Positions 2,878 through 61,003 of a stretch of DNA of 64,000 nucleotides are shown here, in pieces. Made by a program: the position numbers and the translations under genes. The notes beneath the pieces were generated by a model. The model saw nothing but the letters and a program-made list of their open reading frames with translations. It was not told the DNA's origin and searched no databases. Each line of letters starts with the position of its first letter. The first letter of the stretch is position 1. This DNA comes from Octopus vulgaris (Eukaryota): NCBI GenBank assembly GCA_951406725.2, contig OX597834.1:28148001-28212000 (forward strand), written 5' to 3'.

Positions 2878-3196
2878 CAGTGGCACGTAAAAAGCACCAT
2901 CTGATCGTGGCCATTGCCAGCCATGCCTGGCCCCCGTGCCAGTGGCACATAAAAGGCACCATCCAATCGTGGCCATTTGCCAGACTCGTCTGGCACCTGT
3001 GCCAGTGGCACGTAAAAAGCACCCACTACACTCATGGAGTGGTTGGCGTTAGGAAGGGCATCCAGCCGTAGAAACATTGCCAGATCAAACTGGGCCTGGT
3101 GCAGCCTTCTGGCTTCCCAGACTCCCAGTTGAACCGTCCAACCCATGCTAGCATGGAAAGCGGACGCTAAACGATGATGATGATGATGATGATGAT
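2878..3196 (+). mobile_element. RTE LINE 3'-UTR fragment
   Basis: Same sequence as 57601-57981: GGCACGTAAAAAGCACC subrepeats, GGTTGGCGTTAGGAAGGGCATCC and a (GAT)n tail. Confidence 0.8.
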
Positions 3197-3635
3197 ATAT
3201 ATATATATATATATCCAGTAATATAACTATACATATACATACACACTACTACGTATCCAGATATATAACTACACACATGCACAACTGTATATCTAATAAT
3301 GTAACTAAAACAAACACACATACCTGTGAACAACTAAGCCTTTGTATCAAGTTCGAGACAAACAAACTAGCACACTACAGATAGGTTTAGCATTAAGAAG
3401 AATCCATAGCGAGAGGGAAGAGACAGACACCCACAGAGATACCATATCTGAAGACAGAACTGAGAGCTTATTTTCATGATGTTTAGAAATGGTGTGTGGC
3501 CTGGAAAGGCAGGGTGTATGGCCTACAGTTTGTGTTTAACCTATAAAGTTGTTGACTCTTTTTTTTGAGGCCTTATTAGAGTATTATATATTGCATTATA
3601 CATCCATCAATTAAGCAGCATTTATCATCATTGTC

Positions 3636-4424
3636 AAGGCGGCAAGCTCGCAGAAGCGTTTGCAAGCCGGGCGAAATGCGTAGCCATATTTCGTCTGCCG
3701 TTACGTTCTGGGTTCAAATTCCGCTGAGGTCGACTTTGCCTTTCATCCTTTCGGGGGTCGATAAATTAAAGTACCAGTTATGCACTGGGGTCGATGTAAT
3801 CGACTTAATCCGTTTGTCTGTCCTTGTTTGTCCCCACTGTGTTTAGCCCCTTGTGGGTAGTAAAGAAATAGTATTTCGTCTGCCGTTACGTTCTGGGTTC
3901 AAATTCCGCTGAGGTCGACTTTGCCTTTCATCCTTTCGGGGTCAATAAATTAAAGTACCAGTTACGCACTGGGGTTGATGTAATCGACTTAATCCATTTG
4001 TCTGTCCTTGTTTGTCCCATCTGTGTTTAGGCCCTTGTGGGTAGTAAAGAAATAATATTTTGTCTGCCGTTACGTTCTGGGTTCAAATTCCGCTGAGGTC
4101 GACTTTGCCTTTCATCCTTTCGGGGTCGATAAATTAAAGTACCAGTTACGCACTGGGGTCGATGTAATTGACTTAATCCGTTTGTCTGTCCTTGTTTGTC
4201 CCCTCTATGTTTAGCCCCTTGTGGATAGTAAAGAAATAGTATTTTGTCTGTCGTTACGTTCTGGGTTCAAATTCTGCTGAGGTCGACTTTGCCTTTCATC
4301 CTTTCGGGGTCGATAAATTAAAGTACCAGTTACGCACTGTGGGTCGATGTAATTGACTTAATCCGTTTGTCTGTCCTTGTTTGTCCCCTCTATGTTTAGC
4401 CCCTTGGGGGTAGTAAAGAAAAAA
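3636..4424 (+). mobile_element. SINE-B (tRNA-derived, Meta/MESC-like core): head plus 4 tandem units of about 184 bp
   Basis: A-box-like head, B box GGTTCAAATTC, core GACTTTGCCTTTCATCCTTTCGGGGTCGATAAA. Units start near 3687, 3872, 4056 and 4240. TSD ATTTATC(A/C)TCATTGTC at 3620-3635 and 4425-4440. Confidence 0.9.
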
Positions 4425-5334
4425 ATTTATCCTCATTGTCTTAACATCTACTTTTCCATGTTTGCATGGATCAGATGAGATTTAATAAGGCAGAGTTTTA
4501 ATGGCCAGATTCCATTTCTGCTGTCAACCCTCATCTGTTTCCATGCACGAGGGAGAGCTGAAAAGTTCCTGGCTTTGAGGGTATCACCAAGGCATCAACC
4601 TTCTGAGTTCTTCTACAGGGCTTAGAAAACACGAAGGACCACTGCAATGGTCTACCAGATCCACTCACAAGGTTTTGGTTAGTCCAGTGCTACAGTAGAG
4701 ACTGACCCAAAGTGGCCACTCAGTGGAGACTGAACCTGAAACCATGAGGTTAGGAAGCAAACTTTCTAATCACAGGGCCACACTGATGCACCCAAATTAT
4801 TAAAGGCATCACAAAAGTATTATCATGTATTCAAAACGGCCCCTACACAAAACGGACCCTTCTCCTTGCAAGAAAATATTGGTTTTAACATAAAGACAGG
4901 TGGAAAAAAACCACTAAGCATTTTGCTTCATGTGCTTATGATTCTACCAGCTCTCTACCTTAATGTACAAAAAAATGTATACACATAGTGGTTCGGCAAA
5001 AGAGAACGATAGAATAAGTACTAGGCTTACAAAGAATAACAAATTTACAATTATTTAAGGTGTGTATACATTTTTTGGGGACACCCTGTATTTTGGTTTC
5101 GAATTTGGCACAAGGCCAGTAAGTTCAGGAAAGGAGGCAAGTCACTTGCATCAACCCAAGTATTTCACTGGTACTTGTTTTATCGACCCCGAAAGGATGT
5201 CAGGCAAAGACAACCTCGATGGAATTTGAACTCTGAACATAGTGACAGATGAAATACTGCTAAACATTTTGTCCAGCACAGTAATAATTATGCCAGCTTG
5301 CTGCCTTATTTGGCAGCAATATTAACCACTTTAA

Positions 5335-8566: not shown

Positions 8567-10070
8567 CTGAAAACCGAAACAACAAGTTATTTTTAGGAAA
8601 CAAATTTCAAAGACAGACACAGGGCAACAACAGCAGCAACAACAACAACAGTGACTGGAGCAAACATCAAAATCATTGTTTTACTATCTTATGGAGGACA
8701 TTATGTTGTTTATTTGGTTTTAATTTGGTTTTTAATGAGATCGTTTAAGGGACCCCATTAAAAATGAAGCAAAGAATTTTTTTTTTTTTCATAAATAGGA
8801 AATTTCAAAAGACATCTTGTATTTTAACTGCAGTAAGCTTTTTAAAAAATTAGAGTTAACAGACAAGTTCATAAGGGAACCGGCCTCCCATGTAGTCATC
8901 AGGCTTGCTAGAAATAGCAGTAAAATTTCCTTCAAATATTCAGCTTTTTTTTTTACAACAGATGAAAGATATGCAAGATGCTGCATCTCTAGATAAAATC
9001 TACTGATAAGGACATTGTGATGGTGAAAGTTGAACCACCTTTTATCATAGATTAGCTGGATCAGAGCCAATAAGGTGTTAAAAGAACTGCCGGCTGTTTG
9101 ACTAAGAAAGGCGGCAGAAAGGACAAGAAAGATCTGTGTTCTACATTGCAATGTTACATACTGCCAAAAAGGGTGTTACTTGGTACCAATGCTTGAAATC
9201 ATTTACACCCTTCTAAGGGTTTTCCTTTCTTTTTTTTGTGGGGAGGTAACTTTTTGTTAAGAGACAAGAAGTGCCCATCACTGTTTACAAGGCCTCCAAG
9301 ATTGATAGAAGAGAGAAAAAGAGCAGAAGGTGTCCTTGCAAAGAGGCAACTGACCCTGTCAAAGACACCCTGTAGTGCCAGATGGTGGGGCGTAAAACCA
9401 GGTGATGGATTGAGTCTTCCAATCAATTAATCTACGATAGTTGAACTCAGAATGCAAAGAGCAGAATCACTAAGTCTGCCATCCAAGTAGTCTGCTGTGA
9501 GATTTGAACTCAGATCACAAAGAGCCAGAATAAATACAAGCTGCATTGGCACAAGTCAGTGACCTTCACCCTTGGATAAACATCAGTACTAAGGAGCCGA
9601 GAGACCTGTATGCATGAATAATTGCTGGTGTCCCCTGCAAAATCCAGCCCAGGCCTGGGCAAATGTGCATACATGATCAACATTGACCTACGGAGGTCCT
9701 ACATATATCTAAGGTTAAATAAAACAATAGGTAATAAGTGATCAGTGAAGTGGAACAAAATGCCACGCATCATTTAATTATGGTAGGATGGCAAACTGGC
9801 AGAACCATTAGCACGCTGGGCAAAATGCTTAGCGGCATCTCACTCATCTTTACATTTTAAGTTCAAATTCTGCCAAGGTCCTATTTGCCTTTCATTCTTC
9901 CAGGCTAGATAAAAGTACCAGTTGAGCACTGAGGGCTGATGTGGTGGAATTAAGCCCTCTCCTGAAATTGCTGGCTCTGGGCCAAACTTTGAAGCCAGTT
10001 TTTAGTTATGGCAGCAAACTAGCAGAATCATTGGCACATCAAACAAAATGCTTAGTGGTATTTCTTCTGG

Positions 10071-10301
10071 GCGGCGAGCTGGCAGAAACGTTAGCACGCC
10101 GGGCGAAATGCGTAGCCATATTTCGTCTGCCATTACGTTCTGAGTTCAAATTCTGCCGAGGTTGACTTTGCTTTTCATCCTTTCGGGGTCGATAAATAAA
10201 GTACCAGTTGTGTACTGGGGGTCGATGTAATCGACTTAATCCTTCTGTCTGTCCTTGTTTGTCCCCTCTGTGTTTAGCCTCTTGTGGGTAGTAAAGAAAT
10301 A
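10071..10301 (+). mobile_element. SINE-B monomer nested in an older SINE-B
   Basis: TSD GGTATTTCTTCTGG at 10057-10070 and 10302-10315. Confidence 0.88.
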
Positions 10302-10432
10302 GGTATTTCTTCTGGCTCATTACATTATGAGCTCTAATTTTGCCATGGTTGACTGCCTTTCATCCTTTTGGGGTCAACAAAATAACAGTTGAGCACTGAG
10401 ATTGATCATAATCAACTATCCCCTAACATCAA

Positions 10433-19514: not shown

Positions 19515-20200
<686 letters not shown>

Positions 20201-23878: not shown

Positions 23879-24593
23879 AATGTCTCTATGTTTTTTTATT
23901 CATACATACATACATACATACAGACAGACAGACAGAAAGGATGAGAAAGAAAGAAAGAAAGAAAAAGAAAGAAAGAGAGGGAGGGAGGGAGGGGGAAAGA
24001 AAGAAAGAAAAGGGGGAAGGGAAATAAAGAGAGAAAGAAAAGGAGGGAGGGAGGGAAAAAGAAAGAAAGATAAGGAGAGAAAGAAAGGAAGAATCGCTCC
24101 CCGTGTGAGTGAGATAAAATCCAGTCTCTTAAAAAAAAAAAAAAAAACTTTCAGAAACGAAAACATTAAACAAAAACGATGAGAGTTATCTCCCTTGACA
24201 GCTCCACGCACAAGATTCAATGAAAAAGAATGGTACGATAATCGAGGCACGTGTGTGAGTGTAGAAGACTTTTGTCCTTATACAGGATATCAGATTGAGA
24301 TTACAGGACTTTCATGTAACACCCCATGAGCATCCAGTGATTCACATTTTTTTTTAAATGAGTAAATAAATACGTTTGCAGCTGGGAACACAGACTGAAT
24401 GCCAATGGTTAAAGTGCTAAGTTATGGGCTCTCTCTCTCTCAAGATTAAAATAGGGTTTTCAGACGACAAAAGGGTCTGAGGACACCTTTATCTCATCTC
24501 TTCCACCACCACCCACCAGTCGTCAAGGCCCTATAAAATGTCATGGGCACCACCTTTTCTTCTGATCTCAAACACACGCACAAAATAGTATGT

Positions 24594-25365
24594 GTTTCTT
24601 TATTACCCACAAGGGGCTAAACACAGAGGACAAACAAGGACAGACAAACGGATTAAGTCGATTATGTCGACCCCAGTGCGTAACTGGTACTTATTTAATC
24701 GACCCCGAAAGGATGAAAGGCAAAGTCGACCTCGGTGGAATTTGAACTCAGAACGTAGCGGCAGGCGAAATACCTGTTTCTTTACTACCCACAAGGGGCT
24801 AAACACAGAGAGGACAGACAAACGGATTAAGTCGATTATGTCGACCCCAGTGCGTAACTGGTACTTATTTAATCGACTCCGAAAAGATGAAAGGCAAAGT
24901 CGACCTCGGTGGAATTTGAACTCAGAACGTAGCGGCAGACGAAATACCTATTTCTTTATTACCCACAAGGGACTAAACATAGAGGGGACAAACAAGGACA
25001 GACATAGGTATTAAGTCGATTATATCGACCCCAGTGAGTAACTGGTACTTAATTTATCGACCCCGAAAGGATGAAAGGCAAAGTCGACCTCGGCGGAATT
25101 TGAACTCAGAACGTAACGGTAGACGAAATACCTATTTCTTTACTACCCACAAGGGGCTAAACACAGAGGGGACAAACAAGGACAGACAAACGGATTAAGT
25201 CGATTACATCGACCCCAGTGCGTAACTGGTACTTAATTTATCGACCCCGAAAGGATGAAAGGCAAAGTCGATCTCGGCGGAATTTGAACTCAGAACGTAA
25301 CGGTAGACGAAATACAGCTATGCATTTCACCCGGCGTGCTAACGTCTCTGCCAGCTCGCCGCCTT
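24594..25365 (-). mobile_element. SINE-B: head plus 4 tandem units
   Basis: Reverse-complement array with a 17-bp TSD CGCACAAAATAGTATGT at 24577-24593 and 25366-25382. Confidence 0.9.
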
Positions 25366-26173
25366 CGCACAAAATAGTATGTTAGCACTAGCTTAACTAA
25401 TCCCAGACTGGTCACTTTCCATAATTATTAGCTCTTAATCTGTTACTGTTGGGGCTCCAGTATACGATGAACCATACAGCGATGTTATGTCTAGCTAGAG
25501 TAAACCTGAGCAGCACTGACTAAGCAAGTTTGTTCTTCATTTCCTTTCCGTCCATAGCTTACCCCCATTTGAGGATTGAAAAAAAAAAGTTTACGTGGAA
25601 CCAAATAAGATTTGAACTCAAAACTAGAAGCTGGAAAAAGGATGCTGATAAACTGCTTATACCACTGAAGCTACCACCACAATCATCCACCACAAAGTAA
25701 GTAAAAATACAAGAGGAGCAAGCAATACGAACAAGTGGCAGGAAGCTGACCAGAATAATTAATATTAACCTAATTATCTAATTAGAAGAACTAGAGAGAG
25801 TTAATGAGCATGGCAAGATAATGTAATGATAGAGTAGTGGAGTGGAGTATGAGTGAAGCCTTAAAATGATGGAGTGGGAGTTAAGGTATGAGTAGAGAGA
25901 AGTGAAGTGGAAGGGAAGTAGAAAGCAAGGAAAGGAATCAAAAAGGAAGCCTCAAAGTTGGCGCTGGGGGGTGGGCAAAGGCTTCATGATATGCTAGAAG
26001 TAGCAGCCAAAAGTCTATTGGATCACACACAACCAAATTATTACTGGAATGACGCTTTACATAATAATGTATGTAATCATGGATAAGCATTGCCATAATT
26101 ACCAAAAGCTAATGACACCCTGCAAAGACATACCAACCACAACCTTCCCAAATAAATAAATATATATATATAT

Positions 26174-56346: not shown

Positions 56347-57981
56347 GGGTTGGCAACGAGTACAGTGATGAATTCCAGGTAAAGGTTGGGGTCCACCAAG
56401 GCTCAGTCCTCAGTCCCCTCCTATTTATCATAGTCCTCCAGGCAATAACGGAGGAATTCAAGACAGGATGCCTCTGGGAGCTCCTCTATGCTGATGACCT
56501 TGCTCTAATTGCTGAATCACTATCAGACGTGGAAGCGAGGATTAGAATCGAAGGGCCTTAGAGTCAACCTAGCTAAAACCAAAGTCCTAATAAGTAGGAA
56601 GGTAGACAAATCTCAAACGCCTTCAGGTAGATGGCCCTGCTCGATCTGTAGAAAAGGCGTAGGTAGGAACTCTATAAGATGTACCAAGTGTAAGCTATGG
56701 ACACATAAGAGGTGCAGCAATGTCAAAGGAAGGCTAACTAGGAATATAGTTTTTGTATGTGGCAGATGCTCTGGTGCAATAAACACTGAAAATGCGCAGA
56801 GACCAACTTCCGCCACATTCCAGTGAGAAAAACTAGAAATAGTTGATAGTTTCCGTTACCTAGGTGATCGAGTCAGTAGCAGGGGCAGGTGTGCCAAAAG
56901 TGTAACTGCTAGAGTAAGAATAGCCTGGGCAAAGTTCAGAGAGCTCTTACCTCTGCTGGTGACAAAAGGCCTCTCGCTCAGAATAAAAGGCAGACTGTAT
57001 GACGCATGTGTACGAACAACTATGCTACATGGCAGTGAAACATGGGCCGTGACTGCTGAGGATATGTGTAAGCTCGCAAGAAATGAAGCCAGAATGCTCC
57101 GATGGATGTGTAATGTCAGTGTTCATACCCGACAGAGTGTAAGTGCCTTGAGAGAAAAGTTGGACCTAAGAAGCATCAGATGTGGTGTGCAAGAGAGACG
57201 TCTACGCTGATATGGACACATGGTAAGAATGGATGAAGATAGCTGTGTGAAAAAGTGCCACACCCTAGCGGTTGAGGGAACCTGTGGAAGAGGTAGACTC
57301 AGGAAAACCTGGGACGAGGTGGTGAAGCATGACCTTCGCTCTTTAGGTCTCACCGAGGAAATGACCAGAGACCGAGACCTTTGGAAGTATGCGGTGCGTG
57401 AGAAGACCCGGCAGGACAAGTGAGGCCATAACCCGTGGCCCCTACCTGGGACGTAGTCATTCCACCTTTTTTCTTTACTTTCCTTCTTGGGACACATAAC
57501 TCTACTTGTGAAGACCTGTTGAGGCAAGTGCAAATCAAAGAATCAAAAAATCAAATCAAATCAAATCAAATCAACATCAATGGAATTTGTAGTTTGTGGT
57601 ACCAGTGCCGGTGGCACATAAGAAAACCATCCGAACGTGGCCATAGCCAGTACCGCATCAACTGGCCTCCGTGCTGGTGGCACGTAACAAACACCATCCG
57701 ATCGTGGCCGTTGCCTGCCTCGCCTGGCCTCCGTGCCGGTGGCACGTAAAAAGCACTATCCGAGCATGGCCGTTCGCCAGCCTCATCTGGCACCTGGTTC
57801 GGTAGCACATAAAAAGCACCCACTACACTCACGGAGTGGTTGGCGTTAGGAAGGGCATCAAGCTGTAGAAACACTGCCAGATCTGACTGTCCTGGTGCAG
57901 CCTTCGGGCTTCCCAGACCCCAGTTGAACCATCCAACCCATGCTAGCATGGAAAGCGGACGTTAAACGATGATGATGATGA
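56347..57981 (+). mobile_element. 5'-truncated, inactivated RTE-clade LINE (RT C-terminal half plus 3' UTR)
   Basis: RT motifs GVHQGSVLSPLLF, LLYADDLAL, GLRVNLAKTK, FRYLG, LYDACVRTTMLHGSETW and GRGRLRKTWDEVV. Frameshift near 56525 and stops at 56824 and 57208. The 3' UTR has GGTGGCACGTAAAAAGCACC subrepeats and a (GAT)n tail. Confidence 0.92.
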
Positions 57982-60045: not shown

Positions 60046-60545
60046 GTTAAAGTGACCCATGAAATGGTCACTCAGCCTACTAGAAATAGCAGCCAAATCT
60101 CTCTTATATAATCACACCATATTGTCTTTAGAAAAGGAAGTAGACATTTAGCGCTGAAACTTTATATTGCAATGCATCTGAATAAAAATATAAAAGATAG
60201 GTTGGGCAGTGTAGAGGAAGTATCATCTTGGTCATGGTTCTTACTAATTGGGAATGACATGGAACACAGATGGCATGTCTTGGAGGAGGAAGTAGATCCT
60301 ACTTGAAAAAATTTAATAAAGCTAAAAATAGAAGGCAGGGATTGCCCTGGCTTGGTAGCAGTGTCATTGTTGATGTCGCCCTTTAGGAACTGAAAAGAGT
60401 TAGAGCAGATACTGCAAAGCATCTAACAATTTTCTTCGGAGCGATATTTTATTGACATAGAAAGGATGAAAGGGATAGTTGGTCATGGTGGGATTTCAAC
60501 TCAGAGAACAATGAACCAGAACAAATACTACAAGGTATTTTGCCT

Positions 60546-60778
60546 CAAGGCGGCGAGCTGGCAGAAACGTTAGCGTGCCGGGCGAAATGCTTAACGGTAT
60601 TTTGCCAGCCGTTACGTTCTGAGTTCAAATTCCGCCGAGGTCGACTTTGCCTTTCATCCTTTCGGGGTTGATAAATTAAGTACCAGTTACGCACTGGGGT
60701 CGATGTAACCGACTTAATCTGTTTGTCTGTCCTTGTTTGTCCCCTCTGTGTTTAGCCCCTTGTGGGTAGTAAAGAAAT
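60546..60778 (+). mobile_element. SINE-B monomer in an older antisense SINE-B
   Basis: TSD AGGTATTTTGCCT at 60533-60545 and 60779-60791. Confidence 0.88.
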
Positions 60779-61003
60779 AGGTATTTTGCCTGACATTCTG
60801 CTAATGGGACTTCCTAAGTTGCCAGGTGGCAATGATAAGCTACGCAAAGGGACAAATAAAGCTATAAATAGTTCTTTCCCCTATAAGCACAATGCCTGAA
60901 ATGGGGTGGATAGGTAGAGACTTGACAATTACATCGACCCCCAGTGATTAACTGGTACTTATTCTATCAACCCCAAGAGGGTGGGAGGCAAAAGTCAACC
61001 ATG

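Follow-up and report, generated by a model that had tools for sequence, protein, structure and literature searches.

The window analysed here, a stretch of 64,000 nucleotides of the Octopus vulgaris genome (2.8 Gb), contains a SINE array in which one tRNA-like head is followed by four units of 182–185 bp, the whole being enclosed by a single 16-bp target-site duplication (TSD) with 1 mismatch (Table 1). This layout agrees with that given in a preliminary description of the locus, and TRF reports the array as a tandem repeat with a period of 184, 4.0 copies, 95% matches and a score of 1326. Positions within the element are numbered according to a 232-nt family reference, which was computed from 24 full-length copies. 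The family has the properties of a SINE: it is short (232 nt), non-coding and of high copy number, includes 5′-truncated copies, and is flanked by TSDs of mostly 12–18 bp. The window also holds a second one-headed array of the family (24595–25364 between its TSDs), in which units 1–2 and 3–4 are of different types, and a long TA-rich microsatellite of about 680 bp (19516–20197).

Table 1. Members of the SINE family in the window and the parts of the four-unit array
Feature	Position	Strand	Remarks
Left TSD, 16 bp	3620..3635	+	15/16 identical to 4425-4440 (1 mismatch)
tRNA-like head, 51 nt	3636..3686	+	44G/49C sub-lineage; A-box region, 5′ arm and loop of the head hairpin
Unit 1	3687..3870	+	Hairpin 3′ arm, B box, central body, LINE-like tail with end AAAGAAATA
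Unit 2	3871..4055	+	Single-G junction
Unit 3	4056..4239	+	Derived changes 56T, 163T and 201A common to unit 4 only
Unit 4	4240..4421	+	3′-terminal unit, then three A at 4422-4424
Right TSD	4425..4440	+	
Two-headed nested case	10008..10417	+	Old sister-SINE head (start approximate) to rest of old body
Second four-unit array	24577..25382	-	Same family, one head, perfect 17-bp TSD
Monomer	60534..60791	+	Same family, at a non-SINE GGTATTT site, with TSD

The head of the monomer folds as a long stem, in which positions 34–44 pair with 49–59 in the RNA fold; DNA parameters give the same hairpin, in agreement with the earlier account. The head carries motifs that resemble A and B boxes, and the central body may resemble the Deu/Nin domain. 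The junction coincides precisely with the 3′ edge of the hairpin's 4-nt loop. The units had been described as restarting at the 3′ arm, which is correct for this array, but in the family at large they lie one base further upstream (position 49, GGTATTT). Junctions of the single-G type, as in this array, are rare, with 10 matches in the genome, 2 of which are within the array itself. A junction of this type could mark insertion into a 49C head: among the 7 other single-G loci it is the first junction in 5, and such a head is present in 3 of these 5. As regards the suggested likeness to retrozymes, no hammerhead core (CTGANGA) was found on either strand, and an Rfam search of positions 3500–4500 returned three chance snoRNA matches, no ribozyme at E up to 10 and no tRNA. 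Nor did ARAGORN find a tRNA gene in the SINE head.

The variants 75G, 89T and an extra A had been termed private to the four units. Their combination was indeed seen only in this array, but they are not private individually. Thus, 75G is a sub-lineage marker that occurs mostly alongside 44G/49C heads; 89T is a CpG transition, and the 33-mer carrying both 75G and 89T has 144 matches in the genome; the extra A, at position 130, is present in several arrays that were picked by their likeness to the query, but in only 1 of 173 unselected loci, namely the array itself.

The 5′ junction (contigs X2 and X8), junction 2 (X1) and the 3′ junction (X4) are present in short-read contigs from other runs; therefore, the array is unlikely to be an artefact of assembly. 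Contig X8 carries another species label and differs at 11 of 380 bases, and the presence of the 5′ junction in it indicates that the insertion probably predates the split from that species label.

All four units carry 75G, 89T and the extra A, and one G is missing at all three junctions. No sibling of the array was found among the first 30 of the 144 loci with 75G and 89T, or among the 7 other single-G loci. Since the variants and the junction change are shared and no sibling was seen at these loci, the units descend from one ancestor at the locus, either via homogenisation or via one event. It should be noted that 75G, 89T, the extra A and the missing G would also be expected from the formation of the multimer in one event. 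One process of this kind, put forward in the preliminary description, is rolling-circle or re-priming reverse transcription, in which the RNA would be opened in the head loop or the cDNA would jump to the 3′ end of the RNA. The junction at the loop edge, the same G missing from all three junctions, and the homogeneity of this and some young arrays (e.g., a nine-unit array, in which four rare variants are common to the units) are as this process would have them. It does not account for the relation of units 3 and 4, which have three derived changes in common and show 5 differences, compared with 7–12 for the other pairs of units. At least two CpG transitions are held in common by 1.6% of random pairs (about 9% over six pairs), and there is moderate evidence for a late DNA duplication behind units 3 and 4.

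Head position 49 as an insertion site

The exact 24-nt tail of the SINE occurs 101,678 times in the genome, and in 28,509 of these occurrences it runs straight into head position 49 (GGTATTTYRTC), each of the two patterns giving 0 control matches; array junctions make up at least 28% of exact family tails. Divergent RT-PCR, which had been recommended for the detection of a circle, would not be decisive, because the same junction is present in these numbers as linear DNA.

An unselected census covered the window and five 200-kb stretches (1,064,000 bases), with 1 to 35 SINE loci per sampled stretch (five stretches of 200–264 kb). It comprised 60 loci, of which 38 are single copies, 10 have two young units, 8 end in a sister body, 2 have four units, 1 has three, and 1 has two units plus part of another; two of these loci are segmental duplicates (G000:C29:20000001-20200000) and are therefore counted twice. 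The duplicated segments in that stretch have flanks matching at 97–100% and contain zinc-finger frames. Behind 51 of the 78 complete tails in the census lies non-SINE DNA; of the others, 26 join at position 49/50 and 1 at position 16. The fixed phase of the junctions, claimed from a single array, is thus found genome-wide, with 26 of the 27 SINE-followed tails of this unselected 1.064 Mb joining at 49/50.

Of 144 distinct 3′ ends, some of which were picked through the junction pattern, 60 have a TSD, mostly of 12–18 bp, directly after AAAGAAATA. The motif of these targets is H|(G/A/T)(A/G)TAT, and GGT is the commonest start (43 ends). The head of the SINE itself contains C|GGTAT at position 49 and C|AGAA at position 16. 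The latter is a minor second insertion site, with 8 junctions in all DNA examined, including 1 in the census. Another abundant repeat, within which tandem units of 62–63 bp lie at 2878–3023 and 57605–57820 of the window, also seems to be a recurrent target of the SINE, at a C|GGTAC site.

The nested case in the window is informative in this respect. A complete young copy (10070–10301) lies between identical TSDs (10057–10069 and 10302–10314) within an old sister SINE, so that 13 bases from position 49 are duplicated on either side and both heads are kept. Two-headed or TSD-visible nested copies were found at 6 loci, of varying clarity, and at 2 further loci. The junction at position 49 is a DNA insertion site, which is duplicated as a TSD in two-headed nested copies. 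For a site at the edge of the loop, an opening of the RNA loop and a nick in DNA predict the same base, but the duplications are explained by the DNA reading only.

The motif alone under-predicts the use of position 49, crudely 15–20-fold (21 loci per about 109 heads, compared with 8 per 702 YGGTAT sites), which suggests that homology, the hairpin or a longer recognition sequence contributes. Two candidate features of the insertion were considered. New units do not, as a rule, contain sequence taken over from the target at their 5′ side: no excess of shared rare variants is seen at positions 49–65, where the counts of such variants are 0 of 14 in dimers and 0 of 24 in chimeras, although single cases exist. 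There is little support for an RNA 3′ end that reaches into GGUAUUU and primes by microhomology, an extra element-side G before the TSD being present in only two copies among 73 ends with a TSD.

Composition, heads and growth of the arrays

Dimers mostly unite different copies, often of different subfamilies or with a sister SINE, and many arrays terminate in a sister SINE with another tail. Rare variants are common to the units in 10 of 224 cases in young–young dimers and in 6 of 265 in sister-body chimeras, compared with <1% in random pairs; the corresponding counts are 23 of 197 in trimers and 276 of 818 in arrays of at least four units. At least one rare variant is shared in 9 of 36 dimers. 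Moreover, the two parts tend to differ in divergence. The 3′ unit is the more diverged in 21 of 30 dimers and the less diverged in 6 (p=0.012), a polarity that is not significant over positions 66–165 alone. Marker 220C is confined to the 3′ unit in 14 dimers and to the 5′ unit in 1, and 126T/129A (p=0.009) and 130A are concordant. Sister bodies carry 7.3 substitutions from their own consensus, compared with 3.2 in the young unit that precedes them (n=19).

A single circular template cannot produce dimers of different copies in which the 3′ part is the more diverged. As a general source of these arrays, rolling-circle or retrozyme-like amplification finds no support, in view of the junction that is duplicated as a DNA target, the heterologous dimers and the sister-SINE ends; it can yield neither units of different families nor duplicated targets at position 49. 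We regard it as very unlikely.

Plain tandem duplication of a monomer, in which the GGTATTT of the head would slip against a GGTATTT target after the tail, was the simpler alternative offered in the preliminary description. GGTAT does follow 8 of 37 single census copies, two rare variants are common to the units in 3 of 36 dimers, and an off-phase 103-bp tandem (positions 118–220, six times) shows that slippage of DNA occurs. Neither of the window arrays has a TSD that starts with GGTAT, the majority of dimers are no duplicates of a single unit, and for heterologous arrays slippage is excluded. Tandem duplication is right for the growth of arrays but leaves their seed without explanation, and as an account of the whole it appears quite improbable.

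The heads of the chimeras bear on how the seed arises. Judged from their sequence, one-headed chimeras have a head and a first unit that mostly look new. The combination of 62T and 64T, typical of the sister family, is present in 2 of 42 chimeric first units; the head load is 3.8 in chimeras and 3.7 in 43 monomers; and 44G/49C heads are found in 6 of 24 chimeric dimers and 14 of 45 monomers. The possibility that the old head is kept as a rule was rejected, since chimeric heads are mostly of the new type; a few chimeras do keep an old head together with a duplicated private change. The flanking TSDs, by comparison, look old. Matches at 13 or more of 14 positions are seen in 7 of 32 chimeras and 34 of 54 monomers (p=0.0003), and in a comparison limited to scores of 11 or more the counts are 7 versus 10 and 34 versus 7 (p=0.003), it being understood that the end of the sister tail is placed less exactly in chimeras.

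A multimeric read-through RNA offers another route to such loci, in which transcription by Pol III would begin at the inner of the two heads in a nested copy and continue through the host body, and the resulting dimer or multimer would enter a new site in one piece, bringing a single head and receiving a single TSD. The young consensus indeed has no run of four T, chimeric heads are mostly of the new type, one-headed loci far outnumber two-headed ones, and in a few chimeras any old head upstream is missing. Against this stand the chimera TSDs, which are about as decayed as the old body, and the rarity of the extra element-side G (two of 73 TSD-bearing ends). Nor are siblings apparent: besides the loci with 75G and 89T and the single-G loci considered above, an all-against-all search for arrays with unrelated flanks gave no convincing sibling arrays, only weak pairs with three or four variants. 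Self-insertion would, in addition, still be required as the seed. For these reasons, read-through is in our opinion unlikely. A new head within an old TSD is better accounted for by overwriting, or by later deletion between heads, than by read-through copying, and the resident head was probably overwritten during joining of the 5′ end. It should be noted that this loss of a head is an inferred event that bears much of the weight of the explanation.

Growth of the arrays in place leaves a distinct trace. By our own derivation, unequal exchange in a dimer A–B should yield middle units with B sequence towards their 5′ end and A sequence towards their 3′ end, whereas one-pass reverse transcription with a template switch predicts hybrids of first and last units in the opposite order, which is not the one observed. 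In the middle units of 42 arrays, first-unit (A) alleles have a median relative position of 0.69 (n=83), and last-unit (B) alleles one of 0.30 (n=91); as variants within an array are not independent, counts per array are safer. With all variants the signal per array is weak, at 17 versus 7 (p=0.06), or 10 versus 7 in arrays with a young last unit; rare variants give 9 versus 1 (p=0.02), leaving out the C26 array with the 103-bp tandem, the badly aligned L241 and four arrays with a partial last unit. The long arrays were partly selected through their likeness to the query, and repeated in-register insertion from one source could partially mimic the order. Middle units tend to be last-unit/first-unit hybrids, staircase cases occur, and higher-order patterns with periods of 2, 3 and 4 are found within arrays. 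A rare variant common to the first and the last unit is seen in 16 of 31 long arrays.

For one insertion, the copy on C1 carries 2 units and its C26 paralogue at least 8, the pair being recognised by a 339-bp flank at 92.6% and by shared variants, with a 3′ flank that differs on C26. The preliminary description had held that variation in unit number between haplotypes at one insertion would count against formation of the multimer in a single event, and this difference between paralogues comes close to such a case. Altogether, it is likely that arrays lengthen by unequal exchange of DNA rather than by rolling-circle copying. A C26 array outside the census (L015, G000:C26:27819696) was at first a candidate for a reverse hybrid and proved to be the off-phase tandem, in which a run of six 103-bp sub-units (positions 118–220) stands behind eight normal units, all inside one TSD.

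A LINE with the same 3′ end

A LINE of L1/Tx1 architecture has its last ~47 nt and its exact 3′ end in common with the SINE. In the copy from which this was recognised, the tail behind a frame on C29 corresponds to SINE positions 186–232, with a score of 56 compared with a shuffle maximum of 30, and ends at the same base. A matching tail, ending at SINE position 230–232, is present at 26 of 30 related LINE loci and absent from 4. Full copies of the LINE encode an endonuclease, a reverse transcriptase and a zf-RVT domain in ORF2, and a weak zf-CCHC match in ORF1 (E=0.0048, below Pfam's cut-off). An ORF2 of this composition, preceded by a zinc-knuckle ORF1, is the L1/Tx1 build; the putative Tx1-clade label follows this architecture, the names in the atlas being generic only. 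None of 30 copies, a small sample, was found in the position-49 site of a SINE, and two pattern searches for the LINE tail at position 49 did not find it. A frame that is presumably R4/Dong-like and three other frames were considered as partners and were rejected, as they showed no tail match.

Several further observations concern these LINEs. A related family with an A-rich tail is found at position 35–37 of sister-SINE heads in 19 of 21 pattern matches (L322–L341), with ORF2-like sequence upstream in 18; the loci are mostly on G000:C31, where the near-identical host copies may represent a larger duplicated unit rather than independent insertions. Four tail-sharing copies (L271, L280, L281 and L287) terminate just upstream of histone-like frames, which look to us like the starts of H2B and H3. 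Two young copies with an intact 1132-aa ORF2 (L302 and L303) stand head to tail, 5.26 kb apart, with a short shared target sequence between the stacked copies.

Proposed explanation and related systems

In our opinion, the array is probably explained by targeted self-insertion at head position 49 together with expansion at the DNA level. Copies ending in AAAGAAATA would land at position 49 (C|GGTATTT) of their own and of sister SINEs. The ends, the TSDs, the motif and the landing at position 49 are observed in the family, from which the same first step is presumed for 3620–4440. The enzyme would be provided by a LINE of L1/Tx1 architecture with the shared last ~47 nt. Because the head at the end of the cDNA would match that of the resident copy, the two would usually pair, and one head, mostly the new one, would survive within the old TSD, whereas failed pairing would leave both heads in place, with a visible TSD. 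Loci with two heads are much less frequent than those with one. The resulting direct repeat would then expand and be homogenised by unequal crossing-over and conversion, processes that we deduce from the patterns seen in the arrays. For 3620–4440, everything up to the direct repeat is presumed from the family, the locus itself displaying only homogeneity and the late duplication of units 3 and 4.

A more tentative reading, which we consider possible but rather doubtful, is that of a self-homing SINE, whose RNA or cDNA would find resident copies by homology, insert between the promoter boxes and overwrite the head. Old and sister SINEs would thereby become one-headed dimers in place, at tens of thousands of loci, each dimer would be a seed for satellite growth, and the same RNA might sometimes be laid down several times.

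Parts of the proposed targeted self-insertion and expansion have parallels elsewhere. Crocodilian SINEU-3 is described as being mobilised by Tx1-Mar, a Tx1-clade LINE, into a preferred site within a repeat, with tandem copies arising through sequential insertion; in that system a Mariner DNA transposon serves as the target, and whole tandem copies have a TSD between them (PMC4494074). The octopus SINE, in contrast, targets its own head, and as a rule only one of the two heads is retained, leaving seamless head-less units. The closest precedent for the one-head outcome is, by analogy, the annealed 5′ junction of R2, for which cDNA with a target-matching end is postulated to anneal and to give a uniform, seamless 5′ junction (PMC3774820). 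R2, as presented in that source, is autonomous, resides in 28S rDNA and carries a ribozyme, whereas in the octopus SINE the match would come from the element's own head, by a mechanism that we suggest from this likeness.

The squamate satellites sSat1–3 have units shorter than the SINE and a longer terminal unit, are more uniform in longer arrays, and show di- and trimeric patterns (PMC10702118). In the octopus arrays, too, the unit is shorter than the SINE, one terminal unit is extended, and homogenisation increases with array length. The boundaries of sSat units differ from locus to locus and from taxon to taxon, and the text of that study does not use the word TSD (PMC10702118), whereas the octopus arrays have an almost fixed phase, are dispersed with TSDs, and have a seed traceable to targeted insertion. 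Jerboa Dip and mouse B2 likewise have a large tandem share of copies, with up to eight units (PMC8466645), but these are described as head-to-tail multimers, with full-length units according to the squamate study (PMC10702118), and not as head-less units with a junction within the promoter. Non-LTR retrozymes also form tandems of short units, but are described with hammerheads and a link to Penelope-like elements (10.64898/2026.07.22.740005), neither of which was found here.

We found no description of the octopus arrays in the literature; Repbase, the 1994 octopus SINE paper and supplements lay outside this search and may name the family. Arrays of this kind are absent from the main text of a 2026 octopus repeat annotation, in which the words "satellite" and "multimer" have 0 occurrences (PMC13282606). 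The arrays bear on how a dispersed retroposon turns into a tandem satellite; the squamate study, in its text, leaves the first duplication to unequal recombination or to insertion at the same locus (PMC10702118). If the head is indeed overwritten, the SINE would provide a natural case of homology-directed 5′ joining by a LINE of the endonuclease type, and a route by which SINEs renew the promoters of old copies. The share of tails that lie at junctions would distort copy counts, age profiles and calls of circular RNAs based on back-to-front reads. One genome holds each stage in large numbers, i.e., the monomer, the two-headed nested copy, the one-headed dimer, the hybrid array and the multi-kilobase array, which makes the seed and the growth step amenable to separate tests. 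One such locus, G000:C9:732766-739688, has array matches over about 7 kb, which is the size of a satellite; 12 of its units were examined.
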